NCBI GenBank assembly: GCA_032718475.1
Contig: JAUCBJ010000331.1
Location: 1 to 64,000, forward strand
DNA from: Nemertoderma westbladi
Lineage: Eukaryota > Animalia > Xenacoelomorpha
Length of the DNA: 64,000 nucleotides
Direction of reading: 5' to 3'
The position numbers and the translations under genes were made by a program. Positions 18,201 to 63,001 of this stretch are shown piece by piece. Every line of letters begins with the position of its first letter. Positions within the stretch are counted from its first letter, which is position 1. The notes beneath the pieces were generated by a model that saw nothing but the letters and a program-made list of their open reading frames with translations, was not told where the DNA came from and made no database searches.

Positions 18201-19729
18201 AACGGAGTGGCGAAACATCGGTGTGCAACAGGTGAGTGAACGGAGTGGCGAAACATCGGTGTGCAACAGGTGAGTGAACGGAGTGGCGAAACATCGGTGT
18301 GCAGCAGGTGAGTGAACGGAATGGCGAAACATCGGTGTGCAACAGGTGAGTGAACGGAATGGCGAAACATCGGTGTGCAGCAGGTGAGTGAACGGAATGG
18401 CGAAACATCGGTGTGCAACAGGTGAGTGAACGGAATGGCGAAACATCGGTGTGCAACAGGTGAGTGAACGGAATGGCGAAACATCGGTGTGCAACAGGTG
18501 AGTGAACGGAGTGGCGAAACATTGGTGTGCAACAGGTGAGTGAACGGAGTGGCGAAACATCGGTGTGCAACAGGTGAGTGAACGGAGTGGCGAAACATCG
18601 GTGTGCAACAGGTGAGTGAACGGAGTGGCGAAACATCGGTGTGCAGCAGGTGAGTGAACGGAATGGCGAAACATCGGTGTGCAACAGGTGAGTGAACGGA
18701 ATGGCGAAACATCGGTGTGCAACAGGTGAGTGAACGGAGTGGCGAAACATTGGTGTGCAACAGGTGAGTGAACGGAGTGGCGAAACATCGGTGTGCAACA
18801 GGTGAGTGAACGGAGTGGCGAAACATCGGTGTGCAACAGGTGAGTGAACGGAGTGGCGAAACATCGGTGTGCAGCAGGTGAGTGAACGGAATGGCGAAAC
18901 ATCGGTGTGCAACAGGTGAGTGAACGGAATGGCGAAACATCGGTGTGCAACAGGTGAGTGAACGGAGTGGCGAAACATTGGTGTGCAACAGGTGAGTGAA
19001 CGGAGTGGCGAAACATCGGTGTGCAACAGGTGAGTGAACGGAGTGGCGAAACATCGGTGTGCAACAGGTGAGTGAACGGAGTGGCGAAACATCGGTGTGC
19101 AGCAGGTGAGTGAACGGAATGGCGAAACTTCGGTGTGCAGCAGGTGAGTGAACGGAATGGCGAAACATCGGTGTGCAACAGGTGAGTGAACGGAATGGCG
19201 AAACATCGGTGTGCAACAGGTGAGTGAACGGAATGGCGAAACATCGGTGTGCAACAGGTGAGTGAACGGAGTGGCGAAACATTGGTGTGCAACAGGTGAG
19301 TGAACGGAGTGGCGAAACATCGGTGTGCAACAGGTGAGTGAACGGAGTGGCGAAACATCGGTGTGCAGCAGGTGAGTGAACGGAATGGCGAAACATTGGT
19401 GTGCAACAGGTGAGTGAACGGAATGGCGAAACATCGGTGTGCAACAGGTGAGTGAACGGAGTGGCGAAACATTGGTGTGCAACAGGTGAGTGAACGGAGT
19501 GGCGAAACATCGGTGTGCAACAGGTGAGTGAACGGAGTGGCGAAACATCGGTGTGCAACAGGTGAGTGAACGGAGTGGCGAAACATCGGTGTGCAGCAGG
19601 TGAGTGAACGGAATGGCGAAACATTGGTGTGCAACAGGTGAGTGAACGGAATGGCGAAACATCGGTGTGCAGCAGGTGAGTGAACGGAGTGGCGAAACAT
19701 TGGTGTGCAACAGGTGAGTGAACGGAATG
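12235..19729 (+). repeat. 38-bp satellite made of the last 31 nt of CKS exon 2 plus the first 7 nt of intron 2; 197 full units and a partial unit
   Basis: Unit AACGGA(A/G)TGGCGAAACAT(C/T)GGTGTGCA(A/G)CAG|GTGAGTG. The distance 19721-12235 = 7486 = 197 x 38, so there is no net indel. Confidence 0.97.
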
Positions 19730-34700: not shown

Positions 34701-34860
34701 CTACTTATGATCCTACTTACCTACTTATGATCCTACTTACCTACTTATGATCCTACTTACCTACTTATAATCCTACTTACCTACTTATGATCCTACTTAC
34801 CTACTTATAATCCTACTTACCTACTTATGATCCTACTTACCTACTTATGATCCTACTTAC
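19732..34860 (+). repeat. 20-bp satellite (TGATCCTACTTACCTACTTA), roughly 700 units, within CKS intron 2
   Basis: Directly visible. The unit is TGAT plus two copies of CCTACTTA. Variants are TCAGCT, TCATCT or TCACCT in place of TTACCT, with occasional 12-bp and 28-bp units. Confidence 0.97.
26308..27250 (+). mobile_element. 5'-truncated non-LTR retrotransposon with restriction-like endonuclease (CRE-clade-like), inserted in the 20-bp satellite
   Basis: EFRDALCLRYG, a CCHC knuckle (CVCG...HVLSC), RHNEIRD, RLDV..SGFW...YFDV, E..KR.KY and FVPLILSAFGG. One frameshift near 26565 and a stop at 27064. AATAAA at about 27173, a 15-nt poly(A) ending 27250, and CTTACCTAC on both flanks. Confidence 0.88.
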
Positions 34861-43400: not shown

Positions 43401-43502
43401 CTGGTCTGTAACTGCTTTGGTCTGTAACTACCCTGGTCTGTAACTGCTCTGGTCTGTAACTGCTCTGGTCTGTAACTGCTTTGGTCTGTAACTGCTCTGG
43501 TC
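37497..43502. repeat. 16-bp satellite (CTGTAACTGCTCTGGT), about 370 units with higher-order blocks
   Basis: Directly visible. Variants include GCCC, ACCC, GCTT, GATC and GCAC. Blocks with the same variant order recur at 41.3-43.4 kb. Confidence 0.97.
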
Positions 43503-43581
43503 GGGTGGTCCAAGCTGAGTACAATACCTACGAGGAACTGTTTTACGACATCGCGTATCTAGCCATCGACGAGGCGTTACA

Positions 43582-46137
43582 ATGACAACAAATAACGTAT
43601 CCGATACCGACGAGATGGATCACCACACAGACTCGGAAGCCGACGAGGTACCAAACGTCAACAACATGACCCGTCGGTTAGGGGCTCTTAAAGGCGGAGT
43701 ATCCCGAGCGTATCAACGGATGGAGAAACAACTCAAGGGAGTCAAAACCCCCCTCAATGAGGTACAAACTCAGCTTCAAAGTATCCGAAATATCCTACAG
43801 CGGTACGAAAGAATGATACAGGCGTACCAAGAGCTCGTTCCCCCCACCGATCTGGAAAACTACCCCAAGTTGGAAGAACATGTTGTACATCTAGATGGGT
43901 TCCGCAAACAACACCGGAGGACCCTCAGCCTTGTGAGAGGCTATGAGGAACAGTATTACAAGAGGGCTGAAAGAACAGACGCGGAATCAGTACGATCCTC
44001 GAGCATCAGGACAGCAGTACATCGAAAGAGAACGGGGTCCGTTAGAAATCAGCACTCCAGCGCTAGGAGCGAGATATCCGGCTCAGCGCGCAGTTCTCAA
44101 GGGGCGCCGCCACTCCGAGACCAACTGCGAGAACGGAAGGCATTAGCCCTCAAAGCTCGGATGGAAGATGAGTATATTCAACTGCAAGCCGAGCAAGATG
44201 TATTAGCCGCCGAAACACAAAAGCGAGAGGCCGAACAAGCGGCCGAACGGCAGGCCGAACAACGCGAACAGGAGGCCGAACAACATAGACGAGAGGCCGA
44301 ACGGCAGGCCGAACAACGCAAACAGGAGGCCGAACAACATAGACGAGAGGCCGAACGGCAGGCCGAACAACGCAAACAGGAGGCCGAACAACGCGGACGA
44401 GAGGCCGAACGAGAGATTGAACAACGTAAATGGGAAGCGGAAATGCGTAAACAACACGCCGAGGCCCAAGCAATTCTCATCCACAAAAAGAATGCGGATA
44501 TTGCAAAACTCGCAGAATACGAAGCCGCACTTATAGAACGAGATATTCAACTCTACGAGGACTGGGAAAGGGATATAGATCAGGAATATGAACCAATTCC
44601 GGTACCGGAGTTAGAAAAGTCATTTACACCAACAGCGGCGAAACCTCCGAAACCCGAGATCCCGCCTACCAAACAGTCTACGCTATCGGCACAAGCCCTG
44701 GTGTTCCATCCCCCACCGGCTACGCTAAAGAATGAGGAACCTTATTTCCCATCCAACACCACGACAGCGAGTGTACCCAAGTACGAGCCTGAAAAGGACT
44801 CGGAACGGGACGCCACTCCCCGATCGAACAACCCATTTACATCAACACCACAAACTCGTAGCCGCGTCATTATTAAAACTCCACCTATTATTGATCCATC
44901 AAGTATGGGAGTGAGTGCCAATAACTATAACCCTCCGAGTCACTCCAGTTCAGATGACGTCAGCATCATCCGGGTGTTGGAGAACCGCCTTGCCATGCCT
45001 AAGATGGAGATTCGCACCTTCGAAGGAGATCCCGTCGATTACCTCAGATTCAAGAAACGGTTCTTTGCGCAGATCGGATCAACGGACATAGCCGACGCAC
45101 AGAAATTGGTATATTTATCACAATACCTGGGTGACAAACCACGCAGAATTATTGCATGTTTTGAAGGAGGTTCTCATGAGGCATACTATGACGCATGGAA
45201 AACTCTGGATAAAAGATACGGAAATACCGGAACTATAATTAATAAAACTCTAGAGAGACTGATACAGGACGCGGGATCACTAGGGGAACCACAGAACATA
45301 CAGGAATTCTCCGACTCTATGAAGGATGCCTACTATACTCTGAAACCCTTAAATAAGGAGGACCAGGTGAACAACATTCTAAACCTCCGACAGATCGCCA
45401 AGAAGTTCCCCGGATGGTTACAAAGTAAGTGGGCTTATAAATGTGTAGATCTCCGGCGCAGACATCCAGATCGAGATCCTAGCTTCCTTGAAATGTCGGC
45501 ATTCCTAGACGATATCTCCGAAGCCATGAATGACTCAATGTTTTCAAAACAAAGTCTCGCAAAGTTGGACGGAATAGAGAGCAACTCCAGGAGTAAGATA
45601 ACCCCTCCGAAACCGAGATTCCGCCCCCCACCGGTAAGTACGATGGCCATTACCATGGCCGAGGATTCCGACGACGAAGACTACGAGGAACCGACATCCG
45701 CCGAGGAATGGGCATGTTATCTCGCGAATTGGGCACCCGAAAGGGAAGGCATCACAAATTCCCTGCTCTGTCTCTTCTGTGGGGAGAAACATAAAGTGGA
45801 ATTCTGCAGAAAGTTTCAGTTCGCCGAACTCGTCCCACGCTTCGAGGCAATAATGAAACACCGAGGATGCTTCCGGTGTCTTGGAACAGGTCACTATGTT
45901 CGGGAGTGCGACCAAAGATCATGCTGTGCTGTCTGTAACGACCAACGCCATCACACGCTCCTCCACATCCCCACGAACTTCGATTTTACTACCCTCCCCT
46001 TTCGGATCGAAGCCAGGCGAAGAGGAGAAACAAACCACATCTTCAAAGGAACCCGGACAACCCAACGGAGAGAAACCAACCCGTTTAAAATCTCCACCGA
46101 TACACCACAAGTAACCAATATTTCTGGCCACGATTAA
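43582..46137 (+). CDS. gag: BEL/Pao Gag, 851 aa
   Basis: Coiled coil with 54-nt tandem repeats. MPKMEIRTFEGDP.DY..F...F...I and KL.YL.QYL...P..II...Y..AW..L..RYG (DUF1759-like). Three knuckles: CLFC..KH....C, CFRC...GH....C, CAVC...HHTLLH. Confidence 0.92.
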   Translation: MTTNNVSDTDEMDHHTDSEADEVPNVNNMTRRLGALKGGVSRAYQRMEKQLKGVKTPLNEVQTQLQSIRNILQRYERMIQAYQELVPPTDLENYPKLEEHVVHLDGFRKQHRRTLSLVRGYEEQYYKRAERTDAESVRSSSIRTAVHRKRTGSVRNQHSSARSEISGSARSSQGAPPLRDQLRERKALALKARMEDEYIQLQAEQDVLAAETQKREAEQAAERQAEQREQEAEQHRREAERQAEQRKQEAEQHRREAERQAEQRKQEAEQRGREAEREIEQRKWEAEMRKQHAEAQAILIHKKNADIAKLAEYEAALIERDIQLYEDWERDIDQEYEPIPVPELEKSFTPTAAKPPKPEIPPTKQSTLSAQALVFHPPPATLKNEEPYFPSNTTTASVPKYEPEKDSERDATPRSNNPFTSTPQTRSRVIIKTPPIIDPSSMGVSANNYNPPSHSSSDDVSIIRVLENRLAMPKMEIRTFEGDPVDYLRFKKRFFAQIGSTDIADAQKLVYLSQYLGDKPRRIIACFEGGSHEAYYDAWKTLDKRYGNTGTIINKTLERLIQDAGSLGEPQNIQEFSDSMKDAYYTLKPLNKEDQVNNILNLRQIAKKFPGWLQSKWAYKCVDLRRRHPDRDPSFLEMSAFLDDISEAMNDSMFSKQSLAKLDGIESNSRSKITPPKPRFRPPPVSTMAITMAEDSDDEDYEEPTSAEEWACYLANWAPEREGITNSLLCLFCGEKHKVEFCRKFQFAELVPRFEAIMKHRGCFRCLGTGHYVRECDQRSCCAVCNDQRHHTLLHIPTNFDFTTLPFRIEARRRGETNHIFKGTRTTQRRETNPFKISTDTPQVTNISGHD

Positions 46138-46156
46138 TCTTATAAATCGCCGCTAC

Positions 46157-49100
46157 ATGGTTTTCGCAAAGGTAATCCCAGTAAGGATCCAAGGAGTCGG
46201 CAAATCTTTGACGACACTCGTGTTCCTCGATAACGGGTCTGACGGAACCATCATCGACCGGGATTTCCTCGAGCAACTCGGCCTAGAATATGAACCTTGT
46301 AAACGGCCCATACAAACCATCACCGATAACAGAGAAGTAGAGTCCGGGGAGGTACAACTCCAGATGGAAGGAGTGATGAAGGGCTACGAAACGGCTAAGT
46401 TAACCATCAAGAACGCCTTGTTACACACAGACCTCCGGGTGCGGTTCCGACAATCAGCCGAGTATGCCCCCCTCATACAATTGGACCGAGACGATGTAGA
46501 CCTGAGGTGTCCGCAGTTGGACGTGAACCGTATCACCCTACTGATCGGACTTGATATACTGGAACTACACATCCCCACCGGAGATATCGCTCGATCTATA
46601 AACCAGGATGATGGATTTTATGCTGAACGAACAATAATGGGATGGACACTCTGCGGCATTAAGGAGGAAACTACGGACACCTATACCTACCTTCCTAAAT
46701 GTCAGATTAAAGAGAATGTAACCTCTGTGGGTTATTGCTCAGCTTCGGATCTCGACGAGGATTTGTTTCTGGAAACCGAGAAAACCCAACGAGAGATGAC
46801 GAAATATTTTAATTTGGAGACCCAGGAGTTCGCGGAAAAGGACGAAAACCCATCCGAAGAGGACCAATATTGTATGGACGTTCTCGACCAGGCCACGTTT
46901 AAAGACGGACATTGGTGTTCACCTATGTTATGGAAGGATCCAAACAAACCAATGGCAAACAACGCCAGCATGGCACTTAGGCGACTTAAAGGGATTCTAC
47001 GCCGGCTGACTGACCAACCCGAGATAAAGGAGAAATATAATACCGTAATCCAAGGATATCTCGATGATGGATTAGCAGAAATGGTACCACGGAATGAACT
47101 GCAAGGTGGTGAAAGAACATATTATCTCCCAACCCACTATGTAGTAGAAGCCCGCAAAGGTGGGAAAATCCGAGTGGTAAATGATGCTGCCGCTATGTAC
47201 CAGGGCGAATCCCTAAACAGTCAGCTTTACACGGGACCCAACATATATAGTACACTCATCGGCGTATTGATCAGGTTCAGGGAAAACCGGGTAGCATTCA
47301 CCTGTGACATCAAGGCCATGTTTCATCAAGTTCGTACGTTACCAAGAGACTCGGACTGTCTACGTATCCTATGGACGGATAAAACGCTTACTCAACAGGA
47401 GATTAGCCAACTCACGATCAAGGACGTAGACGTAATGCGTATGGTCGTCAGGATCTTCGGCGCTAAGGACTCGCCGGTAGCATGCAGTAACATGCTAAAG
47501 AGGACAGCAACTATGTGCGAAAACGAGTTCCCTCCAACCGTCATAGAAACCATTCAACGATGCTTCTATGTGGACGACGGATGCGCTGGCGCGGATAATG
47601 TGGATGAGGCATATCGGCTAGCAATGGGGATGGTAGAATGTCTGAAGAAAGGAGGGTTTCCGCTCGTGAAGTTCAGATCCCACGACAAAACACTTATGGA
47701 AAAGTTTCCAGAGGACATCCGGCTGGAAAATAACAAAATGTATTCGGAGGATGTGGAACATCGTGTACTTGGGATTGAATGGGACATAGAATCAGACGAA
47801 TTCATCTTCAAATATAAACCCCTACCCAAGCCTATGACAAAAAGGGGATGTTTGTCGATAAAAAGCGCCATCTTCGACCCACTAAATTTCATATCTCCAG
47901 TAACCTTGGCCGGAATGAACCTGATTAAGGAAATGTGGATAGAAGGACTGGGATGGGACGAAGAGCTCCCCCCATACCTCAGCGTCAAATGGAGAAAATG
48001 GACGGAGCAGCTCGAACACCTACACCTTATGCGGATACCTAGACCGTTCTTCCTCGATAAATTGCCCACCGATATCTTCCAGCTCCACACCTTTTCGGAT
48101 GCTTCGAATACCGGAATCGGCGTAGTCACCTTCCTACGGAGACTAAGTAACGATGGAAACGGCGATACAAGCTTCTTATTCTCCAAAGCAAAGACAGTAT
48201 CCGGGGAATTCGTAGCAACGATCCCGAGACTCGAGCTACAAGCTGCAGTTTGGGCAGTAAGACAGAATCGCATGGTCATGCGGAATCTACGGATCCCCAT
48301 AGAATCTCAACACTTCTGGGTAGATTCGAGTATAGTTCTCTATTATCTCCACTCTCCATCACGGCGTCACACCACATTTGTTGCAAACCGAGCCACGGAG
48401 ATTAAACAGTGTACCGGCCGAGAACAGTGGCATCACGTGAATGGGAAGGAAAACCCAGCGGACTTATCAAGCCGAGGCGCCACCCCAAAACAACTCGGTA
48501 AAAGTAAACTCTGGCTTACAGGCCCGGAATTCCTACGGCAGCCACAATTAACATGGAGTACCCGATTCGACCCCGAGCTCGATAGCGGAAAATACTCCGA
48601 GGACGATAAAGAGATCCGTAAAATCCATCGAAGCAACGCGGTGGAAATTTATAGTTGTCTGACTGAGCCTGCAAAGGACTCGGGCAGGCACTATAACGTC
48701 GCGACGATCACTCAACTAGCGGCGTCTTTACATCGGTTGATCGAGCGAACTTCATCCATGAGACGGCTCGTCCACTACGTTATAACCCTTCGCAACTTCC
48801 TACGGTGGAAAAACAACAAACCGATAGTTCAACGGAATATACAAGAACTTATTATCGCGGAGAAGTGTATTGTTAGATATGTCCAGAAAGAAAGTTTCCC
48901 CGATGAATGGGAACAACTTAGTGCGGGCAAAACGTTGAAACCGGACAGCCCAGTCTACCAACTGAGACCAATGATGGGAGAGGACGGACTGATCCGACTG
49001 AATACCCGGATGGCAAACGCCCCGGTCGAATATGAGGTTAAATACCCGGCGCTTCTGCCCGGAACGTCGACACTAGCTAAGCTATTAATTCTACAATGTC

Positions 49101-50272
49101 ACGAGGACAACCACCACGCAGGACAGAATTGGATTATAGCTAATATAAGACAAAGATATTGGATCACCCACATCCAGCCACTGATCCGGAAAGTGTTGAA
49201 ACGTTGCTTCACCTGCAGACGTTACCTAGCGCCACCAATCACCCAAAAGATGGCCGACTTACCAGCCACCCGTCTACAAGCGGATTCCCCACCATTCTAC
49301 GTCACCGGAGTGGACTGTTTCGGACCGTTCACGGTTATTGAACGACGATCCAACATCAAATGCTGGGGAGCCATCTTCACCTGCCTAAGGTCTAGGGCAA
49401 TTTACCTAGATATCGTGGTAAATCTGACACAACACGCATTCATCAACGCTCTGCGTCGATTCGTGGCGAACAACGGGACATGCCGCCACATGTATTCCGA
49501 TAACGGTACAAACTTTGTGGGAGGAGAAAGAGAACTTAGAGAGGCGATCGAGGGATGGTTTACCGATAACACCGCATCCCAAGTCTGGAAGGAACACCAG
49601 ATACAGTGGCACTTCCAGACCCCCTTAGCACCCCATACGAGCGGGGTATGGGAGAAACTGATCGACCTAGTGAAACGATCCATGCGCGTCGCTCTAGGCG
49701 ATACCCGGGTAACCCATGACACCCTCCGCACAACATTCTGCGAGATCACGGCTACCCTGAACAACCGACCCATTGTTCCTATCCGCGACGACCCCACAGA
49801 CCTGGAGCCCCTCACTCCTAACCACTTACTGGGGAGACCCAAAACCCACGTCCTCCCGGAAACCATGTTCCCGGATCCCAACGAGATCGCGAAACATACA
49901 AACTGGAAAAAGGCCCAAGCGTTGGCAGCGCATTGGTGGAGAATTTGGGCCCAGGAGTATCTCATAACCCTCCGGACCAGGAGGAAATGGAACAACACCT
50001 ACAGGAACGTCGCAGTTGGCGACATGGTACTAGTTAGAGAAGATCTCAAAGACCGCGTTCACTGGCCTGTGGCGCGGGTCGTGACCATACACCCAAGCAA
50101 AGACGGACTTGCGAGGACTGTGACGATACGAACGAAATCGGGCCACTACCAACGCCCCATCCAAAAGCTGTGCCTTCTTGAAGGCAATGATAGCGGTGAC
50201 TCTACGAGAGGTGATAAGTTCCCTACTCAAGATCCTGCTGCAGACATCGGTGACAATTATAAATGCGTTTGA
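46157..50272 (+). CDS. pol: BEL/Pao Pol (protease, RT, RNase H, integrase), 1371 aa, uninterrupted
   Basis: Protease FLDNGSDGT. RT DIKAMFHQV and FYVDD. RNase H FSDAS, IPRLEL and NPADLSSRG. Integrase HHCC, VDCFGP, SDNGTNF, GVWEKLI and LTPNHLL. Confidence 0.95.
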   Translation: MVFAKVIPVRIQGVGKSLTTLVFLDNGSDGTIIDRDFLEQLGLEYEPCKRPIQTITDNREVESGEVQLQMEGVMKGYETAKLTIKNALLHTDLRVRFRQSAEYAPLIQLDRDDVDLRCPQLDVNRITLLIGLDILELHIPTGDIARSINQDDGFYAERTIMGWTLCGIKEETTDTYTYLPKCQIKENVTSVGYCSASDLDEDLFLETEKTQREMTKYFNLETQEFAEKDENPSEEDQYCMDVLDQATFKDGHWCSPMLWKDPNKPMANNASMALRRLKGILRRLTDQPEIKEKYNTVIQGYLDDGLAEMVPRNELQGGERTYYLPTHYVVEARKGGKIRVVNDAAAMYQGESLNSQLYTGPNIYSTLIGVLIRFRENRVAFTCDIKAMFHQVRTLPRDSDCLRILWTDKTLTQQEISQLTIKDVDVMRMVVRIFGAKDSPVACSNMLKRTATMCENEFPPTVIETIQRCFYVDDGCAGADNVDEAYRLAMGMVECLKKGGFPLVKFRSHDKTLMEKFPEDIRLENNKMYSEDVEHRVLGIEWDIESDEFIFKYKPLPKPMTKRGCLSIKSAIFDPLNFISPVTLAGMNLIKEMWIEGLGWDEELPPYLSVKWRKWTEQLEHLHLMRIPRPFFLDKLPTDIFQLHTFSDASNTGIGVVTFLRRLSNDGNGDTSFLFSKAKTVSGEFVATIPRLELQAAVWAVRQNRMVMRNLRIPIESQHFWVDSSIVLYYLHSPSRRHTTFVANRATEIKQCTGREQWHHVNGKENPADLSSRGATPKQLGKSKLWLTGPEFLRQPQLTWSTRFDPELDSGKYSEDDKEIRKIHRSNAVEIYSCLTEPAKDSGRHYNVATITQLAASLHRLIERTSSMRRLVHYVITLRNFLRWKNNKPIVQRNIQELIIAEKCIVRYVQKESFPDEWEQLSAGKTLKPDSPVYQLRPMMGEDGLIRLNTRMANAPVEYEVKYPALLPGTSTLAKLLILQCHEDNHHAGQNWIIANIRQRYWITHIQPLIRKVLKRCFTCRRYLAPPITQKMADLPATRLQADSPPFYVTGVDCFGPFTVIERRSNIKCWGAIFTCLRSRAIYLDIVVNLTQHAFINALRRFVANNGTCRHMYSDNGTNFVGGERELREAIEGWFTDNTASQVWKEHQIQWHFQTPLAPHTSGVWEKLIDLVKRSMRVALGDTRVTHDTLRTTFCEITATLNNRPIVPIRDDPTDLEPLTPNHLLGRPKTHVLPETMFPDPNEIAKHTNWKKAQALAAHWWRIWAQEYLITLRTRRKWNNTYRNVAVGDMVLVREDLKDRVHWPVARVVTIHPSKDGLARTVTIRTKSGHYQRPIQKLCLLEGNDSGDSTRGDKFPTQDPAADIGDNYKCV

Positions 50273-50549
50273 ACCCTTCTCATCATGTTGACAAACTCTT
50301 TTTAACTGTGATTTACTGACAATGAGTTATGGACCCCCCTTAAACCAACTGTAACCACGCAATGGTATTTGTGTTTCCTCGTGTGTTATGTGGAGTCCAG
50401 CATCACCCTGCAGATGTTTCGACTGACGCAGGGTCGTTTATGTTTTGTTTACCCTGATTTTGGTCATCAGGACCTACGATATTGGATTATTGGAGATGGA
50501 AAAGATTTGAAGTGGAATTCATTGTATTCATCGCAGTATGTTATGTTGT

Positions 50550-50970
50550 CCGTTGCGTGTGCAGTTCGGGGCGTAGGCGGTGTAACGAGTCCAGCTGTAG
50601 ATCCCGGATTGCCGCGCAACACCCCCTCTATCCCGTTATTCTGGTGGGTCCATGGTGCATCCACATGACTTCGACGATAGAGGGTTTTATGTTTCTCAGT
50701 CGCGTTATTCTGGTGGGACCGTTGCGTGGATTTTGGGGCGTAGGCGGTGTAACGAGTCCAGCTGTAGATCCCAGAATGTTGCGTAACCCCATCCCACATG
50801 ACTTCGTCGACTGAGCTTTATGTTGTTGGGAGTGTTATTCTGGTGGGTCCATGGTGCATCCACGTGACTTCACTCCCAGTGTCGTCATTGTCCGTTACGT
50901 GCGCAGTTTGGGGCGTAGGCGGTGTAACGAGTCCAGCTGTAGATCCCGGATTGCCGCGTAACACCCCTTC
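50550..50970 (+). repeat. Triplicated structured-RNA-like modules between pol and ORF3
   Basis: GGGGCGTAGGCGGTGTAACGAGTCCAGCTGTAGATCCC starts at 50568, 50735 and 50910. GTTATTCTGGTGGG...CCAC(A/G)TGAC starts at 50635, 50704 and 50834. Confidence 0.85.
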
Positions 50971-51497
50971 CACGACAAAGATTAACCAAAGAAAATGATT
51001 GAATATAGTTGGAAACGATGAAAAGGATCAGACAACTCTACTATAAACCTGAATGATGATGCGTATGCTGATGAAAATGAAATGATGCGCACCCTGGTGC
51101 TGCGCTTATAACAATGATGATAGCCGGGGGGCTATAAACCCAATGATGATGTGGAAATAAATAAATGTGAAATAAATGGTGGAAATAAATATGTTGAAAT
51201 ATGTGGAAATAAATGAAATGAGATGAAATAATAATGAAATGAAAAAAGACAAAAAAAAGGTATAAAAAGGTCTAAGAAAAGAATTGGAAAAAAGAAAGGA
51301 CAAAAAAGTCATAAAAAACTGGTTGGATATTAATGTATAGTTATAGTAACTGTAAATGCTGAATGTATTAGCAATAAGATGATAGATGCCTATATAGCAA
51401 TGTTATTAATAAACTGAATTAAATAAAAAACTGAATCATTCTGCTATCGCTATAGTTTCAGACTTTCTGGACTTATAATTAACTGATCTAATTTGTA

Positions 51498-54116
51498 ATG
51501 GATATAATCGTAAATATGGACCCAAATCGCCAAATTATCGGCGAATTACGTAACACGGTAGATCTACTGGAATATTCGCAACCCGGATCCCCTGACTTTG
51601 ATACAAATTGGAGCACCCTTCTAAATGAGAACGTGCGAGTCATTAAATTCACCGGGCGAGAGGGACCGGATTCTAAGAATCTACGAGCCCTCCGGTTAGC
51701 CGATGCTAGTACGAGACTGAAAAGAACTCGGAACGCAAAGGCAACCGGAGGGGACGATCCGTCGTTTTGGGAAACGTTCCGGCAGAGCGTCTACAGATCC
51801 CGATGTTTGATCTACGACAACGAGGGAAACGCGACGCCCACCTCGAAAGCGATTACGTTGGCGAGATGTCAAAGTTTCGTCGACGACAAGAGTACGTACC
51901 TCGCCCACTGGGGAAACCTTTCGGAGTGTACGGCGACGCTTCGAGAGGAACGCATATCGATTATCCAAAACCGAGACGACTACCAGGAAAAGTACGGGGC
52001 GAAAGAATACGGTCGATCCTTAGTCGTCGTCCTCGGAACCCTGGACGGTTTGGTACTGGTGTGCCGATTATTCCCGACACCCAGACAGGAAGTGCAGGCA
52101 GCCGGAGCGATCTGGTTGCTGCCTCCGGAAATCCAAAAGATCCTCTTCGACTTCGACGTCATTAAAATCGGGTCGGATATCAAGGCAGACGTCCGGAACG
52201 ACTACGCGAACGCTCCTGCAGGAAGAAACCGACGAGACGACCTCAACGCCCTTAGCCATTGCATCGACACTCAAACGCTACTAGCCTGGTTACGATTCGC
52301 CGAGTTCATGCGAGGATTCCAAGAGGTGAGACCGACGAAATCCGGGATCGGCTACCTCGCTGTGCTAAACGGCGGCATCGACTTCAAACCCCAGAAATTC
52401 CGGGACTATAATAAAATATACGGTGGATACCCGGGATTGGAAATAAAGAGCGAGCGAGAGGGTCGATGGAAGGACGTTGATCGGAAGTGGACGATACACC
52501 AAAGATGGGAGAATCCCGATCGACGGAACTACGTTTACGTCATTATGGAATGCTACACCGTCGCTAAGTTTATCTGTAAAACTCTCGATAATCTTATTAC
52601 GGCGGTCCCCCTTTCCTTCGTCGACTACGACTGGAACGAGGTTATAAACCACGCGTTTAAAGCGGTCGAGAACATTACACCGGGAGAATCGAAAACGCCC
52701 GCCGTTATCGATTCCTGGGACGAGAGCGGACCTTACGACATCCCTACGATTACCGAACTTCTCGGTGCGGAGGAGCCTCTGATCTCCTCGGAAGGGGAAG
52801 AGATATGGCTAAACGAGGGTGTTCTACTCTCCACCCCGAAGCGACAACTCGAGCCGGAGGCCGCGTATGGACCGGCCGCCAAACGGGTTGCCTCGGCCGA
52901 ACCGATGAAGAGAGCAGGCGTTTACACCCCACGCGGCTCCGGTAGCCCCGCGAGGGAGGTAGCCACTACAGCTGCATTGAGCGACTTCGGCGACATATGC
53001 CAACGGTTATCCCCGTATCCTTTCCCGGGTGGCGAAGATTGGTCGTCGGAGATTCCGAGTACCAGCCACCAACGGACCCGCTCAGCGATACTGGTCGAGG
53101 AGGGCCCCAGCGATGCGCCGACCCCCGACGATCTCCTCGGTATCCCTCCGTCTAAAACCCCGGCACCTCTTCGCCTACCAGCGGTGCCTACTACACCCGC
53201 CGTTCCTCAGGACCCTATGCGACTAACCCGTTGGTACGCCGAGCAAACTGAATGGATCCACCGCCAGAAACGGTCATCCGAGTTAAGACCAGCGGGACAC
53301 AAAGAAGGTTATCGGAGCGAGAACCTACTACGCAAAAGCCTAGCATTCCGCGGGCTACCGACCACCGAGAATATTCCGAAGAGCGACCGACGACTCGAAT
53401 ACTACGTCGGCGTCCCGATTCCGATATTTCCTGGTCGAGAGATGCAGTTGGAGGTATGCGGCGACTGTGGTTCGGAGCAGTGCCCACGCGGCAGAAGGAA
53501 TCGGGTTACCGATTCATGCCTCCAGCTCCTCGGGATACTCTATTGCCCTTACTGCGCGACATCGGGCCACGACGTTTCCGTCTGCCCGATCCTTTATAAC
53601 CTCTGCACCACGTGCGGTTTCCGTGGACATTCCTCTAGCCCCCGCTGCTATATCAAATGTCCAACCAAAGACGTTACCGCTATGGGAAATATGGTCATGT
53701 TTGAAACGTACGCAAACAGCCACTTAAAGACCAAGGTTCGGAGAAACGCTCGGAATATCGCGCAGGAGATGGCGTGCGGATATTTCTCCTTCCCGGAACG
53801 CCTCCACACGTCGGCCACGCTACCCTTCCATTACGTGGATCTGCTACTGAGCGCCGGATTATTCGGTCCATTCGAAGTCATTAGACGATTATATTCGTAT
53901 AAAGAGGAGTTCGGTGACGGAGAGTGGTTCCTAGAGGCACGCAAATCTGAGTTGGAAAGACGAACCGACATGATCCCTATGCCATCGAAAGGAAGAGCCG
54001 CCAGGAGACAAGCCGAAGCGTTACTCACGATGGATGTGGACGCTCCCCTACCAGCCATAGCGATCGATGAGAGTCGACGGGCGAAGAGACAAAAGGCGTA
54101 TCAGAGAAAGAAATAG
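51498..54116 (+). CDS. Extra ORF3 of BEL element 1: DEDDy/WRN-EXD-like 3'-5' exonuclease domain, Pro-rich linker and Cys/His zinc knuckles (872 aa)
   Basis: ExoI-like IYDNEG; ExoII-like LPPEIQKILFD..VIKIGSDIKAD; CIDTQ; GIGYLA; ExoIII-like W...YVIME. C-terminal CGDC, CPYC...GH....C and CTTC..RGH.....C. The ORF itself is clear; the domain call is by eye. Confidence 0.7.
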   Translation: MDIIVNMDPNRQIIGELRNTVDLLEYSQPGSPDFDTNWSTLLNENVRVIKFTGREGPDSKNLRALRLADASTRLKRTRNAKATGGDDPSFWETFRQSVYRSRCLIYDNEGNATPTSKAITLARCQSFVDDKSTYLAHWGNLSECTATLREERISIIQNRDDYQEKYGAKEYGRSLVVVLGTLDGLVLVCRLFPTPRQEVQAAGAIWLLPPEIQKILFDFDVIKIGSDIKADVRNDYANAPAGRNRRDDLNALSHCIDTQTLLAWLRFAEFMRGFQEVRPTKSGIGYLAVLNGGIDFKPQKFRDYNKIYGGYPGLEIKSEREGRWKDVDRKWTIHQRWENPDRRNYVYVIMECYTVAKFICKTLDNLITAVPLSFVDYDWNEVINHAFKAVENITPGESKTPAVIDSWDESGPYDIPTITELLGAEEPLISSEGEEIWLNEGVLLSTPKRQLEPEAAYGPAAKRVASAEPMKRAGVYTPRGSGSPAREVATTAALSDFGDICQRLSPYPFPGGEDWSSEIPSTSHQRTRSAILVEEGPSDAPTPDDLLGIPPSKTPAPLRLPAVPTTPAVPQDPMRLTRWYAEQTEWIHRQKRSSELRPAGHKEGYRSENLLRKSLAFRGLPTTENIPKSDRRLEYYVGVPIPIFPGREMQLEVCGDCGSEQCPRGRRNRVTDSCLQLLGILYCPYCATSGHDVSVCPILYNLCTTCGFRGHSSSPRCYIKCPTKDVTAMGNMVMFETYANSHLKTKVRRNARNIAQEMACGYFSFPERLHTSATLPFHYVDLLLSAGLFGPFEVIRRLYSYKEEFGDGEWFLEARKSELERRTDMIPMPSKGRAARRQAEALLTMDVDAPLPAIAIDESRRAKRQKAYQRKK

Positions 54117-54281
54117 TGGATCGGGATATTCCAGGAACATTTATCGAACATTTATTTTTATACAAACTCTAGGCCAAATTAATTAAAAACTATGCAATAT
54201 TAAATTTGGGTTTTTTATATTGGGAATGACCTACGCAAACTCAATCGACCGACAGACTTCACGAAGGTCATTGGGGGGGAC

Positions 54282-55100
54282 TGTTCGCGGTATTTCAACT
54301 TTCCATAACGCGAGTTGAATATTTTTGTATTTATTTAAAATTGATTATTCTGATATTACTACTGGGTGCGGGACCATGGGTTTTGGGCACATTTAATAAA
54401 CTGGGGGCGATTTATGGGCGAACTTTGGGGCAACTTACAGGGTACGGGAATAATTTCATAGTTATAAGGGCCAGGGGGGGATGGAAAATGCAAGCAGTAT
54501 TCAGGTTAGCCTGAGTACTATTAGGCCCTGGCCAACTTCCTGCTGCCTGTAGGGGTGGATTTGGTAATGCGCCAGGCCTAAAGGACAAGGACTGCCCTTA
54601 GCGGTCCCTGGCCAACAGCAGCCATTACGAGCCTGAAAAGAACTCGGACCGCTGACTGCTTGTGTCAGGGATTTGCGACGGGAAACGACGGCCCCTTAGT
54701 AGCCAAGCCGTTCTGGTTCTCGATGATCGAACCCTTCGGGGTTCGTGAGGGGTGGAGCGGACACGCGAACAGGTGGCCAACTAACGACTGCCCCCTGAGC
54801 TAAGCCGTACTGGTTCTCGATGACCGATCCCTTCGGGGTTCGCGAGGGGTGGGACAGACATGCGAAAGGGCTGGCCACAGGACGGGTTTGACGAGAACTG
54901 CCCTTAGCGGTCTCTGGTCAACGGCAGCTACTACGAGACTGAAAAGAACTCGGAACGCTGACTGCTTGTACTGGGATTTGCGACGGGAACCGACGACAGA
55001 CCCCTTAGCCAAGCCGTACTGGTTCTCGATGATCGTTCCCTTCGGGGTTCGTGAGGGGTGGAACGGACACGCGATGGGGTCGAAACCCACAGTGCGGGAA
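54282..55100 (+). repeat. Probable 3' LTR of BEL element 1 with internal ~305-bp and ~100-bp duplications
   Basis: Starts TGTT directly after a PPT-like G tract. 54590-54770 resembles 54897-55075. The end cannot be set without a 5' LTR. Confidence 0.5.
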
Positions 55101-55800
55101 AGACAAGCTGGCTACCATTGAAATGAATAGGGGAAGGATAATATGGTGTGTTCGTGTTCCCATCCTAATAATGTCTGTCGTCTTGGCTCAGCTAAGCTTA
55201 AACAGAGCCACAGCCTACAATAGAGCTTTACCTAAATACACTTCCAGTGAGCCAAGCAGTAGTGGCGGCGGGTTAGCTCCAAAATGCCCATGTAGGATTT
55301 CTTCGAAAAAGGACCAATTGGTTGAGTTACGAGTTACAGTGAAAAAGTATTCATGATTAGATTTTGCTTTGAACAGGAGAAACAGATGGAATATATATAG
55401 GTCATCTAATTATTTGTTTAAAGATTAGCAAACAATACAGTGTAATTGAATTGATGAAATCCATAAATAAAACTTGGATACAAAATCTAAAATCGGGATG
55501 AAAAATATAAATTTCTGAGCTAAGAAAGGGAAATTGGATACTGTTGGAGAGGGAATGTGAGAATTGGATACTGTGGGGGTTGGGGAGGGAATGTCCGGAA
55601 ATCGAAGCCTTTTTCTATCTGCCAACATCCTGGGCTTTACTTACACTCAGCCTCCATTCACTGGCTGTGATTGACAAGCTAACGTGCCTCAGAAGTTCCT
55701 TTCATGAATGCCGCAATTTATATTTGGCCATTTTGGTCGTTTTGGCCGCCAAAATGACCAAATTAATGTTTATTGGGATTGGGACTGTATGGGCCCTAAC

Positions 55801-58800
55801 ATGGTAACATCAACCCCAATACCAAATAGGGTGACATTCCCCCATTACAATATCAGCAATATACCCAACCAAGACCAAGAACAAAAACCCCAAACCCCTT
55901 GGACCAAAATAAATCGTGTGATACCGAGATATGGAGGGGACTGTTACCCCCAATGATATATCCAACGCAGAAGAGGTTGACAGGCCCGACGGGCGAACCA
56001 CACCCAGCAGCAGGGGAATCTGGACAGCACCCATCGAGCCCACTAGAAGTACAGGCAATGGGAATGGCAACACTCATCGATGCGCTTAAGACCAGGATCG
56101 AGCTGCCACCAGTGGAACCGTTCAAATTCGATGGAAGCAGACCGGAAGAATACCTGCAATTCCAACGCATGTACAGTAATGAAATATTAACAAAGAACTT
56201 GACACAGGCAGAGTGCCTAAAATATTTACAAGTTTACACAGGGGGCCCAGCATACGACATCGTAAGGCAGTATCAAGGTATCGAAGGTGGATTCACAACT
56301 GCATGGCGGTCCCTAGACAGGGAATACGGGCATCCTGCTAAGATCATCCGACAAACCTTAACGGGAATTACATCAGGCGGACTACAGGACAACTCTGTCA
56401 GCATTAAGACTTTCGCGAATAAAGTCGAAAAGGCGCTGATTGTGCTGAAGACCTTAGATGCGCCTTACGAACTCAATGCATCGAACAACATCACCACAAT
56501 AGCGCAGGCACTGCTGATCTGGCTAAGAAACAAGTGGAGGAAGATTGCCTTCTCCACCCGGGAGAAGAAAGGTGCGGAACCAGGCCTAGAGGAAATGTCG
56601 AACTTCCTCAATTACGAGGCGGAATTGATAACGGACCCAGTCTACAGCGAGGATAGTCTGGGGAGGGCGCCGAGGACCGAATACAACAGGCCAAAACCAG
56701 AACATAGTGCGGCAAATGCGTTACCAAAGTTAAGACAATCGCTACCATACGCGGCGATGCAGGGGACTGCTAGTCCACAGATAGCCGGGGGTAGGGCCAC
56801 ACTGTGGCATGAACAGGGACAAAATAATAACACAAAAAAATACAACCCCAACATGCCCAGTAGGCCAAACCCAAATAATAAGAACGCTAGACAGCTAAGC
56901 ATGAATATACGTGCAATACGCAATGCACTGTATAGAGAAGGCTATAATCCGAGAAACAAATGCCAATTACACTCGAACGCACTCCATCAGACTATGAAAT
57001 GCAAGTATTTACAGGCGTTTCCCAAACAAGATCAGGTAGAATACGCGAACAGAAGTGGAATCTGTCATCGATGTGTGGTAGGCGGACACAAGGTTGAACA
57101 GTGTAAGGAGACGCCAATAAAATTCGGTCAAGGCAAAGGCCAAACAATGGCGACAAGCACCATAGGAGCGAAGAAAAGGGGAACGGAACTACTTGGGGTG
57201 GTACCGGTGAGGGTGATGGGAGAAAGCAGTCGATCAGTCACGACATTGATGCTTGTCGACAGCGGAGCAGCCTTCACGCTGGTGGAGAATTAGGTGGCCG
57301 AGGAGATGAGGTTACAGACCAGGCCGAGTAGGATGGCGGTAACTACTATCTCGAGCAAGGATGAGGTCCTGGAGATGAGAACGGGACGGTGCGAGATATC
57401 AGCAATAGCACCAGGATGTGATTATGGGGTGACCATCGACCCCATTCAGATAATAGAATCGATTAATATAAACGCCAAGCGACCCACAAGGATCGAGGTC
57501 GAGCAATATCGGGTCCTGGACGATATCGATTTCTCAATACCGGAAGTGGACGTTTCGGAGGTATCCATTATAGTCGGAATGGATTGTCCGACAGCCCACG
57601 AGAGGATATGGACCATATTCGGAGAGAATAAGCAGCACGATCCGATGGTGATTCTCACGCCATTCGGATGGACGCTTAGCGGCCCAATTGAGACCAAGAT
57701 TCCATTCAGGGTGTCGGAGACATCAGGGTGCATGTTCGCAGGTACAATGAGGGAGATGGAGGACGAAGGAGCAGAAGAGCAACTTAAGAGGCTGCTGCGG
57801 CAGGACTTCGAAGGATTAAAGGAGGCCGGGGTCGGAACCTCGGTAGAAGATAAACAAGCGATAGAGAGCGTAAAGGAGTCGATGAAGTGCAAAGGGGGAC
57901 GGTACACCATAGGGATGGTGTGGAGACAACCAAAGCTGCCGTTGCCAGATAACAAAGGGATGGTACTCACGAGGCTTCGCAAACTGAAGGAGACACTCAG
58001 ACGGAGCCCCGAGAAGGACGAGTACATCCACAGGACAATCAAGAAATACGTTGAGAAGGGATGGGCCATGGAGTTACCGGTCGACGAGCCAAACACGGAC
58101 AGGACCTACTATCTGCCACTGCACATGGCTTTAGATCCAAAGAAGGGTAAACTGCGGATGGTGGTCGACGCGTCAGCCAAAATGAATGGCAAGAGCCTAA
58201 ACGACTATCTGCTGGAGGGCCCCAATATCTATAACTCCGGGATAGAGGTCTTGTTGAGATTCAGAACTGGGAGGCACGCCTTCACGTGCGACATTGAAGG
58301 CATGTTCAACCAAGTCCATGTGACGGAAGAAGACAGCGATAGTCAGCGCTTCTTATGGTATAACGGCGACGAAATGTTGGTGCAAAACATGGGGGCCAAG
58401 TCGTCCTCATTTACAACGACTACGGCTGTGAGAGATACGGTAGAGGGTAAGGAAGGAGAGCATAGTACGAAGGTGATCGATATGATTCCACACGATTTCT
58501 ATGTAGACGATGGGATGGGATCTGGAAACATGGTTGAAGAAATACTGGAGATAGGGCGCGAGGTTTGAGACATCCTAAAAGGATCCTTGTTCAACCTCAC
58601 TAAGTTCCAGTCCAGCTCCGAGGAATTCATGAAAGCCATAGAAGACAAGCAACCAGAGTCGACCATGGACAACCCCACAACAGCAAAGGGACAGGATCTG
58701 GCGAACAAGAGAGTTGAGTCTCAGCAAAAGGCACTAGGGATCGTGTGGTCCCGGGAAATGGACGAGTTGGAGTATCAACTGAGCCAAGAGGGTGCAGAGA

Positions 58801-60655
58801 TCCACACTAAGCGGGGCTATGTATCGTACATAGCAAGGATATATGATCCCCTAGGCCTAGCATCCCCACTGTTAGTCACGGGGAAGCAACTATTAAAGAA
58901 AGTATACAAGTTAAAGGATGAATGGGATACAGAAGTCCCGGAAGAAATAAGTAGACAGTGGAGCAAGTGGACGTGGAGTCTAGAGGAGATGGGGACGTAC
59001 AGCATGCCACGCGTGTATTTCCCGGACGGAGACATGACGGACCTGGATCTACACATGTTTTCCGATGCATCTTTGGAAGCATATGGAGCGGCACTTTATT
59101 TGGTACAGCGAAAGGGGGCTCATAAGCCCAGACTTGCATTTAGTAAAGCAAAGTTGACGCCACCAGATTCAGCATCAGTGCCGAAACTCGAGCTGACAGC
59201 TGCGAGGTTAGGAGCAAGGGCCACAGCTTACTTGAGGGACACTATACCTAACATAGTGGAGACACACTACTGGACGGACTCCATGGTTGTGTTAGGGTGG
59301 CTACATAACGAGAAGACGAGATACCCTATATTCGTCGCGAATAGGATAAACGAGATAAGGGCGACGACTGACCTAGAAAGGTGGCATTATTGCCCTACCG
59401 ACGAGATTCCAGCAGATCTGTTATCGAGGCGCGTTGCACGCTGCACCTTTTCGAAGAAGGAAGAGTTGTGGCAACACGGGCCACACTTCCTTAATGATAG
59501 ATCAGCATGGCCACCAATGAGGAAGGTGGACCCTGGCTCAGAGGAAGTAGTAGCAGAAGAGGAGGGGAAAGATCCAGAAGGGGAAGAGATATATAGCCAG
59601 TTGGAGAGGGAGATCAAGGAAGTGCCACCGAGATCAGAAGATCCATGTGATAATCCAACAGATAGGTTTCTCAGTTACAGCTCCAGCTGGTAGCATATTG
59701 GAGGGCCTACGGGGATTTCCTTAGGGGAGTTGGCAAGGATGCCAAAAGGAAACCAACCATCGATCTGGAAGGAGCGGCTATAGCCATAATGCGATACGAG
59801 CAAAGAAAGGAGTACGCTGACGAAGTGGACAGAGTTAGCAAGCAACAACACCTTCGTCGAGACAGCGAACTCAAAACGCTGTCCCCGCAGTTGAACGAGG
59901 ACGGGATTCTGGTGATGAATTCCAGAGTGGTGAACAATAACAGCTTAGTTATCCCACCAAAACCCATAATAATCCCCAATAAATCACCAATAGTCCACCA
60001 GATCATATGGGACTCGCATAAATCGATACTACACGGAGGCACGAATCAGATACGAAGATACGAAGGACCTTCTGGATCACCCAACTTAGGAAGAAGGTGA
60101 AGGCGGTAGTGGGGCAGTGCCAGACCTGCCGACGGACGAGAAAGGAGAGGGCCGTACAGGAGATGGCGCCATTACCGGCCAACAGAGTGAGACAACACGA
60201 CCCGCCATTCACGCACTGCGGCGTGGACATGTTCGTGCCGATTAAGATAAAGGTGATGCGGCATACGGAGAAACGCTACGGCATTATCTTTGTCTGCAAC
60301 AACACAAGAGCGGTGGGAATAGAACTTGCGCAGGGCTACGGCATCGGCATTTATTAATGCCTTAGAAAGATTTGTAAGCCACAAAGGGGGAACACTCAAG
60401 GTGATATATTCAGATAATGGGACCAACTTCGTGTGAGCGGAGAATGAGTTGAAGAAGGGTGACTTGGTAATCGTCACTGACGACACAATTTTCAATAACC
60501 AATGGAGACTAGCGAGAGTGGTAGATACTTACCCCGACGAGGGCGGAAGAGTCCGGTTGTTGGAAGTGAGGATAGGAGGCAAGATAGGGGCCAAAGATAG
60601 GAAGACATACAGGAGGGCTGTGGGAAAGTGCTGCCTATTGGAAGGGGCACCTTAG
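55801..60655 (+). pseudogene. BEL/Pao LTR retrotransposon 2: decayed gag-pol
   Basis: Gag LPPVEPFKFDG and knuckles; PR LVDSGA; RT FYVDD; RH FSDAS and VPKLEL; IN GVDMF and SDNGTNF. In-frame stops at 57291, 58566 and 59691, several frameshifts, and a large integrase deletion near 60450. Confidence 0.9.
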
Positions 60656-60811: not shown

Positions 60812-61378
60812 AGTTAGAAGTTAGGGAGTGTGGTATATAGACATACCACGAGAGTAGTAGCAGGGTACATAGTACCGGAGTAGTAGGGTACATAGTACCG
60901 TAAGAAGCTAGAAGTTAAAAGTTAGGGAGTGTGGTATATTATTGACATACCACGAGAGTAGTAGCGGGGTACATAGTACCGGAGTAGTAGGGTACATAGT
61001 ACCATTAGTAGTAGTTAGAAGTTAGGGAGTGTGGTATATGGACATACCACGAGAGTAGTAGCAGGGTACATAGTACCGGAGTAGCAGGGTACATAGTACC
61101 GTTAGTAGTAGTTAGAAGTTAGAGAGTGTGGTATATAGACATACCACGAGAGTAGTAACAGGGTACATAGTACCGGGGTAGCAGGGTACATAGTACCGTA
61201 AGAGGCAGAGGTTAGAAGTTAGGGAGTGTGGTATATAGACATACCACGAGAGTAATAGTAGGGTACATAGTACCGTAAGAGTTAGAAATTAGAGTTAGTA
61301 GAAGTTAGTAGTAAGAGAGTAGAGAGTATGGTATATAGGTATACCATAAGATTAGTAGTAGGGTACATAGTACCGTAG
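60812..61378 (+). repeat. ~100-bp tandem modules of small hairpins downstream of BEL2 pol
   Basis: About five to six copies of GTGGTAT-loop-ATACCAC, each followed by one or two copies of GGTAC-ATA-GTACC. Confidence 0.85.
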
Positions 61379-61912: not shown

Positions 61913-63001
61913 ATGGTGGAGAGACTAGTTAAGAAGAGAAAGATGGAGAGGAGTGGAAAGGAGATACTAGTGGACTTCACGCAAAGGCATCCGGAGGAAA
62001 GGACGAGGGAATACTACAAGCCGCTACTGAAGGGTCACAAAGTGCGAGCGCTGCAGGACCACTTTAGGGAGATGCACTAGAGAGGACTGGTCGGGACCTA
62101 CAGGATGCCGTCGTTGGACAACGCGATCCTCGAGGATTTTCGCTACATAGTGAAGGGAGACGAAGTGAAGTTCGGGATACCGAAGTATCCGGGGGAACCA
62201 CCGAGAAATGAATGGAGGAGGTTTGTAGAGTCTGTGAGTAGGGGTGGATATGGATACATGGTCCTAGACGACGAAGGGACTGTGGAGGATGACGAGGGCT
62301 CAAGAAGAGGGTCGGTGGGATCAGCTAGAACCCTACTACTGCATTTGGCCTCGCCAAATGGAGACATCTTTCTATTCGATCTGGGAACCTATGGGAAGAA
62401 GAGCGGGCCGAAGTTAAACCGGTTGCCAAGGGCGGAGCAGGACCTAGTGAGGGAGAAGACTACAGTGAAGGTGGGATCGGCGATCCGCGACGACGCGGAG
62501 AGGATCGTTGGACCGGAAACTCCCAACCTCCTGGACATGCAAGCGGTCTATATGGCCATGATGGGGCCAGACGGGTTGGGATTGGTAGAGAACACAGTAC
62601 ATTGCGGAGCAGTGGCGATAGGTCAGCTCATGGGGCTCGTCTGCCACAAGCCGATGGACTGGGGTAAGTTCCGGGAGGAGTACGGAGCGGAACTGGTGAA
62701 CTCGCTGAAATGGGGAGTGAGGCCAGGGAAACAGGAGGTGTACCAGTTCCGAAGGGGAGCGATAAAGATATATCAGAAGAGATATATCCTACAGGAGGAT
62801 TGGATAATGATAGGTTTACTAAACCTATTCATGGCCGTGGTTATCGGAGGAGAGCCAACAGCGTTTCTGCTATCAGGAGCACCTCTAAACTACAGAAGAG
62901 CCTTTAACCCTGTAAAAGCTTCTGTGGGATATAACTGGCCCCTTTTGCTTCGCAATCCAGTTTCCCCCCAGGCGCTGGAATACTCTAAAAAGGTTCTCTA
63001 A
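61913..63001 (+). pseudogene. Exonuclease-like extra ORF associated with BEL element 2 (homolog of ORF3), with one in-frame stop and probable 3' truncation
   Basis: The ATG at 61913 is in frame with 62105, with a TAG near 62078. Motifs VLDDEG, LP...QDLV.EK..VKVGSAIRDD, LLDMQ, KP..W..F...YG and YILQE line up in order with ORF3. Confidence 0.65.

Follow-up and report, generated by a model that had tools for sequence, protein, structure and literature searches.

The locus and the layout of ORF3

We analysed a 64,000-nucleotide (nt) stretch of the genome of Nemertoderma westbladi (GenBank assembly GCA_032718475.1, contig JAUCBJ010000331.1, positions 1 to 64,000 of the forward strand), which is called the window below. 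It contains a BEL/Pao retrotransposon, element 1, in which a third open reading frame (ORF3) of 872 amino acids (aa) lies between pol and the 3' long terminal repeat (LTR). This gene, with its predicted exonuclease domain and zinc knuckles, is the subject of the present work. P0001 in the following lines is one of three homologues described below.

43582..46137, + strand: gag of element 1, 851 aa from ATG, with DUF1759 (E 8.6e-15) and zf-CCHC (Pfam)
46115..50272, + strand: pol of element 1, with Peptidase_A17 (E 4.9e-38), DUF5641 (E 1.6e-28), Integrase_H2C2 and Asp_protease (Pfam)
51431..51461, + strand: candidate splice acceptor, pyrimidine-rich, ending in TTTCAG, 37 nt upstream of the ORF3 ATG, predicted from sequence only
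51498..54116, + strand: ORF3, open for 872 codons from ATG; a predicted exonuclease domain of DEDDy type is followed by a Pro-rich linker, zinc knuckles and a basic tail
51753..52622, + strand: predicted EXD2/WRN-like exonuclease domain (aa ~86-375), from profiles, Atlas and motif alignment
53457..53852, + strand: Cys cluster, two CCHC knuckles and conserved tail, common to ORF3 and P0001 (BLASTP E 7e-10 for this part)
54075..54113, + strand: basic C-terminal tail, a nuclear localisation signal predicted from the sequence; P0001 likewise ends in a basic run
54273..54280, + strand: G-rich polypurine tract of 8 purines, with TG at 54282
54282..55085, + strand: 3' LTR, from the depth step, loose contig ends and self-comparison; right end uncertain

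The domain order of element 1 was DUF1759 followed by Asp_protease, Peptidase_A17, Integrase_H2C2 and DUF5641, which is the BEL/Pao set in Pfam. These domains place it in BEL/Pao (Belpaoviridae), which is defined by Gag and by a Pol in the order protease, reverse transcriptase, RNase H and integrase (PR-RT-RH-IN) with BEL-specific families. The gag and pol genes overlap by 23 nt and differ in frame in the window copy. The BEL/Pao arrangement of a purine tract (about 10 nt) followed by an LTR starting with TG was also found, with 8 purines and a step in contig depth. At the right edge of the LTR, other copies part from the window sequence at 55074-55085. Inside the LTR (54584-55074), a 185-nt unit is present in duplicate together with three C(UUCG)G hairpins; judging from contig joints, the number of these units apparently varies among other copies. 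Without its 5' LTR, element 1 spans more than 11.5 kb, and a 16-bp satellite (37497-43502) abuts its leader at the place where the 5' LTR would be. The original prediction, made from the letters of the window, had placed an uninterrupted 872-aa ORF between a BEL/Pao pol and the polypurine tract and LTR, and this was confirmed by the reading frame, the Pfam domains, the purine tract and the TG at 54282.

The Cys clusters of ORF3 begin at C654, C683 and C703. The knuckle C683-C696 is an exact CX2CX4HX4C, that is, a CCHC zinc knuckle, and C703-C717 reads CX2CX4HX5C. Three Cys/His clusters had been claimed for ORF3; all three exist as Cys clusters, two of them are CCHC knuckles, and the first (C654) has no His. 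A derivation of these knuckles as a copy of the element's own Gag knuckles was not supported (2.6-3.8 bits). The claim that ORF3 has no signal peptide or transmembrane segment held with one qualification. ORF3 is not Env-like, with no C-terminal anchor and no glycoprotein match in the Pfam and PDB searches; one hydrophobic 19-aa window does exist at aa 174-192 (Kyte-Doolittle peak 2.04). Because this window aligns with a beta-strand hairpin of the exonuclease homologues, it probably represents core strands and not a membrane helix.

A HMMER scan with ORF3 aa 1-401 against 1.84 billion representatives gave three matches, P0001 (E 1.1e-6), P0002 and P0003, all of them ENA singletons, on contigs of 9.4, 2.7 and 2.2 kb, respectively. 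P0001 (648 aa) has the layout of ORF3: its exonuclease-like domain and low-complexity linker are followed by three knuckles of the CCHC type and by a tail that is conserved, and BLASTP aligns the two proteins in the exonuclease part (E 5e-14) as well as in the knuckle/tail part (E 7e-10). The P0001 knuckles match HIV-1 nucleocapsid (E 1e-4). Word-indexed protein searches gave no match for full ORF3 or for aa 85-401, and a profile of the five-member family described below retrieved P0001 alone. Related-locus scans of viral contigs and Joint Genome Institute (JGI) metagenomes found no relatives, a tblastn search of plasmids and phages with P0001 stayed at noise level, and the NCBIfam search gave noise only.

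Linkage of ORF3 to element 1 and selection

We mapped the contigs of four public runs on window positions 43000-56500 and summed their depth per bin, a depth that is no copy number. The summed depth in run X1 (in thousands) was 17-28 in the gag/pol bins, 16-31 in the ORF3 bins and 69-84 at 54275-55176; the corresponding values in run X3 were 14-27, 20-28 and 71-94. Depth rises about threefold at the LTR start in these two runs, and the pattern is consistent with a single repeated unit whose LTR starts at 54282. Stronger evidence for linkage than depth comes from a homologue in a second element, a shared hairpin and selection.

The second element lies downstream of element 1 in the window:

55830..60655, + strand: element 2, a decayed BEL/Pao element with gag and fragmented pol (DUF1759, Peptidase_A17 E 2e-42, DUF5641)
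61913..63001, + strand: ORF3b, the homologue of the exonuclease gene in element 2; residues D 62267, E 62273, D 62492, Y 62783, E 62795

The Pol proteins of the two elements are 31% identical across 817 columns. ORF3b is located downstream of the element 2 pol and has the same motif order as ORF3. Its open frame covers 62081-63001, with an upstream ATG at 61913 and an in-frame stop near 62078, and it ends before any knuckles. We searched 465 six-frame segments with a profile of P0001-P0003 only and found ORF3 (E 5.4e-23) and ORF3b (E 1.8e-13), the next segment being at E 0.29. For ORF3b, the best of 2000 shuffles reached 6.5 bits vs 46.5 bits for the real sequence.

Hairpins and structured repeats were found at the following positions:

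44782..44807, + strand: hairpin motif copy in gag, GNRA loop; fold window 44776-44812
48665..48683, + strand: hairpin motif copy in pol; fold window 48655-48692
51708..51736, + strand: hairpin motif copy in ORF3, in a reading frame different from that of the gag copy; fold window 51704-51740
54624..54958, + strand: two hairpin motif copies in the LTR, at 54629 and 54935; fold windows 54620-54656 and 54926-54962
50546..50973, + strand: three long predicted hairpins in the pol-ORF3 spacer, which share an identical 38-nt core and differ in their outer stems (z -3.1, -2.2, -1.1)
60812-61275: tandem repeat of a 97-nt unit, 4.7 copies, between pol and ORF3b of element 2, folding to hairpins (z -3.0, -2.6)

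The motif is a 17-nt pattern with five copies, all on the + strand within element 1 (44785, 48665, 51713, 54629 and 54935); the chance expectation is 0.00 for a pattern that was itself derived from these copies. The five hairpins fold alike (z -1.4 to -4.2), with the loop GAAA or GCAA, and the AGUA and GAA flanks of the gag and ORF3 copies are reminiscent of what we take to be the bulged-G (sarcin-ricin/loop E) motif. Element 2 does not contain the pattern, and the hairpins of element 1 had no match in Rfam. This five-copy hairpin is possibly a protein-binding or packaging signal. As the 97-nt repeat also folds to hairpins, structured repeats precede the third gene in both elements.

Selection on ORF3 could be estimated from a diverged contig of run X4, which differs from the window at 76 of about 455 letters (51761-52214) and bears on aa ~100-182 only. 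After six differences of a close contig had been removed from the 40 listed of 71 rows, 34 changes were scored, each site singly. Twenty-three of them were at third positions, and 24 were synonymous vs 10 non-synonymous, where the expected synonymous share is 0.25-0.32 (p < 1e-5). The ratio pN/pS, obtained in answer to a dN/dS check proposed with the original prediction, was about 0.14-0.19. This result shows that ORF3 is under purifying selection between copies in this part of the protein. Five long X4 contigs are closer to the window copy (1.8% divergence, 76/4323 letters); among the well-supported differences listed, 6/9 in ORF3, 6/9 in pol and 4/12 in gag were synonymous.

Several observations weigh against the linkage. 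Self-comparison revealed no second LTR copy, no 5' LTR and no target-site duplication for element 1 within the window. The gag of element 2 has a similar depth in X1, so even depth says little for linkage, and depth in X4 was uneven (gag 24-52, ORF3 102-311, one pol bin 0), with its maximum at the spacer hairpins 50546-50973. No contig among those listed bridges pol to ORF3; one X4 contig runs from the spacer into ORF3 (51116-52216). The joint 46198-52484 in one X4 contig would suggest an internally deleted copy, and was not counted because its short side is <30 letters. The direct similarity between ORF3 and ORF3b is marginal (BLASTP E 0.21; 12-41/1000 shuffles score equally).

The missing paired LTRs and the missing pol-ORF3 bridge would be expected if ORF3 lay next to the element without being related to it, or if it were a host gene of recent capture that is carried passively. 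This explanation is very improbable, because a second BEL family, whose Pol is 31% identical, has a homologue in the corresponding place, and ORF3 itself is intron-free, multi-copy and under purifying selection between subfamilies. Moreover, ORF3 shares the hairpin motif with gag, pol and the LTR, and is located upstream of the purine tract and LTR. We conclude with high confidence that ORF3 is a real element-borne gene. An ORF3-type accessory gene is real and selected, and is found in at least two BEL/Pao families.

The predicted exonuclease domain and its putative catalytic residues

ORF3, ORF3b, P0001, P0002 and P0003 were combined in a five-row family with pairwise identity of about 20-30%. 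When the five-row profile was compared with 177,635 PDB sequences, the top match was the EXD2 exonuclease domain (6K17, E 7.2e-4) and the next was Egalitarian (E 0.12). The full-length profile matched EXD2 at E 1.3e-3, and its knuckles also match HIV-1 nucleocapsid. In the Atlas, ORF3 aa 85-400 scored 0.92 to a cluster with a PF01612 share of 92%, below fungal clusters without a name at 0.93, and ORF3b scored 0.95 to a 'Werner syndrome-like exonuclease' cluster (38% PF01612). Thus ORF3 resembles DEDDy exonucleases by profile similarity (EXD2 E 7e-4; Atlas 0.92 and 0.95), yet it lies under the Pfam cut-off. The original guess of WRN-exo/EXD2 kinship agrees with these results, EXD2 being the closest relative of known structure.

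The motifs YDNEG, LPPEIQKILFDFDVIKIGSDIKAD and Y..E, which had been named as marks of a DEDDy exonuclease, are present in ORF3. The predicted catalytic residues and their positions are:

ORF3, + strand: D107 at 51816, E109 at 51822, D231 at 52188, Y347 at 52536 and E351 at 52548

D107/E109 form ExoI, D231 belongs to ExoII and Y347/E351 form ExoIII, where E replaces D in YxxxD. The elements hhDxE, KxGxxI/VxxD/E, the DT/DM/DV motif, G, KP and YxxxE/D are present in 5/5 family members, and the matching EXD2 columns are presumably the catalytic ones. A profile of the other four members also puts D107/E109 and Y347/E351 in these columns. In block scores from the same four members, CLIYDNEG reached 10.25 and the Y347/E351 register 6.75 vs 5.5. 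Another candidate for ExoI, RDDYQ (aa 160-164), was rejected with a block score of 1.25 vs 10.25 for CLIYDNEG.

Other results are unfavourable to the exonuclease assignment. Pfam returned 0 families for ORF3 at E up to 1, and parts of ORF3 gave nothing above noise; P0001 matched PF01612 at E 0.2 at best. A four-row profile matched EXD2 at just E 0.047, and the ExoI segment by itself had a conditional E-value (c-E) of 0.04. D107 falls in the ExoI column with MAFFT E-INS-i, and not with L-INS-i on five rows. The final acid is E in 4/5 members, and an insert of ~45 aa after ExoI, on which the ExoI assignment depends, is peculiar to ORF3 among the five. PDB searches with single sequences were uninformative. 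AlphaFold models had a predicted local distance difference test (pLDDT) score of 32 (single sequence) and 36 (4-row alignment, with ends picked so that motifs line up), which is too poor to judge the fold; Foldseek and VIA on these low-confidence models gave no meaningful match (best Z 4.7, helices only). Because both models were poor and the fold searches uninformative, the fold assignment relies on the sequence profiles.

Judged by profiles, Atlas and motif columns, the originally predicted combination of a DEDDy exonuclease-like domain and zinc knuckles on a BEL/Pao element is well supported, and ORF3 very likely has the DEDDy fold. Catalytic activity is also probable, with less confidence, from the predicted residues. 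It may be supposed instead that ORF3 is a catalytically weak or dead RNA-binding adaptor of the Egalitarian/EXD1-like type, which would export, localise or shield element RNA via the repeated hairpins, in a manner like Rev and its response element (Rev/RRE-like). Egalitarian as the second PDB match, the change of the last D to E, the large insert, the basic tail and the structured repeats in the spacers of both elements are consistent with such an adaptor. However, dead DEDD proteins usually lose catalytic acids, and here 5/5 members, at about 20-30% identity, retain all four acids as well as the Tyr. We consider the adaptor unlikely.

Elsewhere in the window, three satellite arrays with periods of 38, 20 and 16 bp were observed at 12235-19729, 19732-34860 and 37497-43502, respectively. 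An intronless ORF at 1187-1798 encodes a two-box HMG protein (HMG_box E 3e-27), which is HMGB-like and perhaps a retrocopy. Fragments at 2119-2920 (- strand) resemble a non-LTR reverse transcriptase, as judged by eye.

Proposed role and comparison with known systems

We tentatively propose that ORF3 is a third BEL/Pao gene encoding a predicted active 3'-5' exonuclease of the EXD2/WRN type, tethered to nucleocapsid-like knuckles, which may serve in counter-defence against host RNA silencing; taken as a whole, this proposal is possible rather than probable. ORF3 would be expressed from a spliced subgenomic RNA that uses the candidate acceptor at 51461, and the basic tail would direct the protein to the nucleus or nuage. 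The knuckles could then grip single-stranded RNA while the two-metal site trims its 3' end. The substrates may be the small RNAs by which the element would be silenced, the precursors of such RNAs, or antisense transcripts with that effect. If the protein is active, a counter-defence role seems somewhat the better guess. It is preferred because DEDDy cargo recurs in elements of unlike replication chemistry (LTR elements, Terminons and Dada). For arenavirus ExoN, a suppressive effect on innate signalling is reported (bioRxiv 2021.02.01.429129, accessible part).

A close rival is that ORF3 acts on the element's own nucleic acid, where it might trim the 3' ends of genomic RNA or of reverse-transcription intermediates, or proofread complementary DNA (cDNA), with the knuckles and perhaps also the hairpin as its guides. 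The ORF3-type knuckles resemble retroviral nucleocapsid, and the hairpin occurs five times along element 1. For their ORF3, the rotifer authors favoured a role in processing the 3' ends of RNA made by the element itself (PMC5408684), which speaks against counter-defence, and a similar role was proposed for Dada (PMC3706591, accessible part). On the other hand, gag and pol suffice for most BEL/Pao elements (PMC8742986), ORF3 stands as a gene of its own without an evident connection to packaging, and element 2 does not have the hairpin pattern. We regard a function in processing element RNA or cDNA as rather unlikely, and the non-catalytic adaptor is the weaker rival of the two. Counter-defence and self-recognition could also be combined, in an old BEL/Pao clade with an exonuclease-knuckle effector and an RNA barcode. 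Its knuckles would read the GNRA hairpin, so that the element's own transcripts are shielded and host small RNAs are destroyed. This extended scheme is quite improbable.

Juno, Vesta, TelKA and Mag are gypsy-like and do not belong to BEL/Pao. DEDDy ORF3s with the motif DEED have been reported in the Juno and Vesta LTR elements of bdelloid rotifers and in Athena/Terminons (PMC5408684), and this account is repeated in the accessible parts of PMC6431247, PMC5718144 and PMC6338049. Like the ORF3 of Juno and Vesta, the gene described here is a non-env third ORF downstream of pol, of the DEDDy 3'-5' exonuclease type and with a D-to-E change, and the function of both is putative. In contrast, the rotifer hosts named in the main text are Juno, Vesta, TelKA and Mag, and BEL/Pao is not mentioned there (PMC5408684). 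The rotifer motif is DEED, whereas the fourth acid of our ORF3 is E. Nucleocapsid-like knuckles at the C-terminus are found in our ORF3, and none are described for rotifer ORF3 (PMC5408684). Rotifer env and GDSL ORF3s show neutral intragenomic variation (PMC5408684), in contrast to the purifying selection in ORF3 here.

Therefore, exonuclease ORF3s of LTR retrotransposons are already known. The original prediction regarded such cargo as unfamiliar in BEL/Pao; this stands for BEL/Pao, for which no exonuclease gene, and no EXD2-like knuckle-bearing form, was described in the literature searched (Repbase, Dfam, GyDB, supplements and most subscription journals being outside its scope), and it does not extend to DEDDy third ORFs in general, which rotifer LTR elements and Terminons are already known to carry (PMC5408684). 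The word 'exonuclease' has 0 occurrences in the accessible main text of PMC3118150 and PMC8556966, and none in PMC5348765.

The ORF3 domain is similar to the EXD2 exonuclease domain (6K17, WRN-exo family, PF01612) in that the ExoI, ExoII and ExoIII columns align. It differs from EXD2 in lying under the Pfam cut-off, in its ~45-aa insert and YxxxE, in its linker and knuckles, and in its mobile-element context. Dada DNA transposons also carry a DEDDy domain, with a proposed role in DNA-end processing; unlike ORF3, this transposon-borne exonuclease domain sits inside the DDE transposase (PMC3706591, accessible part).

A selected exonuclease gene in families 31% alike in Pol would mean that nuclease cargo is an old and recurrent strategy across retroelement superfamilies, and not a peculiarity of rotifers. 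Through a search for its substrate, the intact 872-aa gene provides a natural test of the long-standing question whether animal retrotransposons encode suppressors of silencing by PIWI-interacting RNAs (piRNAs) or small interfering RNAs (siRNAs). Among the LTR retrotransposons of animals, BEL/Pao forms a major superfamily, and its sole described third gene is env-like (PMC8742986). The ICTV profile gives only gag, pol and env for Belpaoviridae, with a length of 4.2-10 kb (PMC8742986). Element 1 is like the Belpaoviridae with an env-like third gene (PMC8742986; PMC3118150, accessible part) in its gag, pol domain set, purine tract, LTR and third-gene slot. Unlike them, it is longer than 11.5 kb without its 5' LTR, compared with 4.2-10 kb, and its third slot is occupied by a predicted nuclease-knuckle gene.

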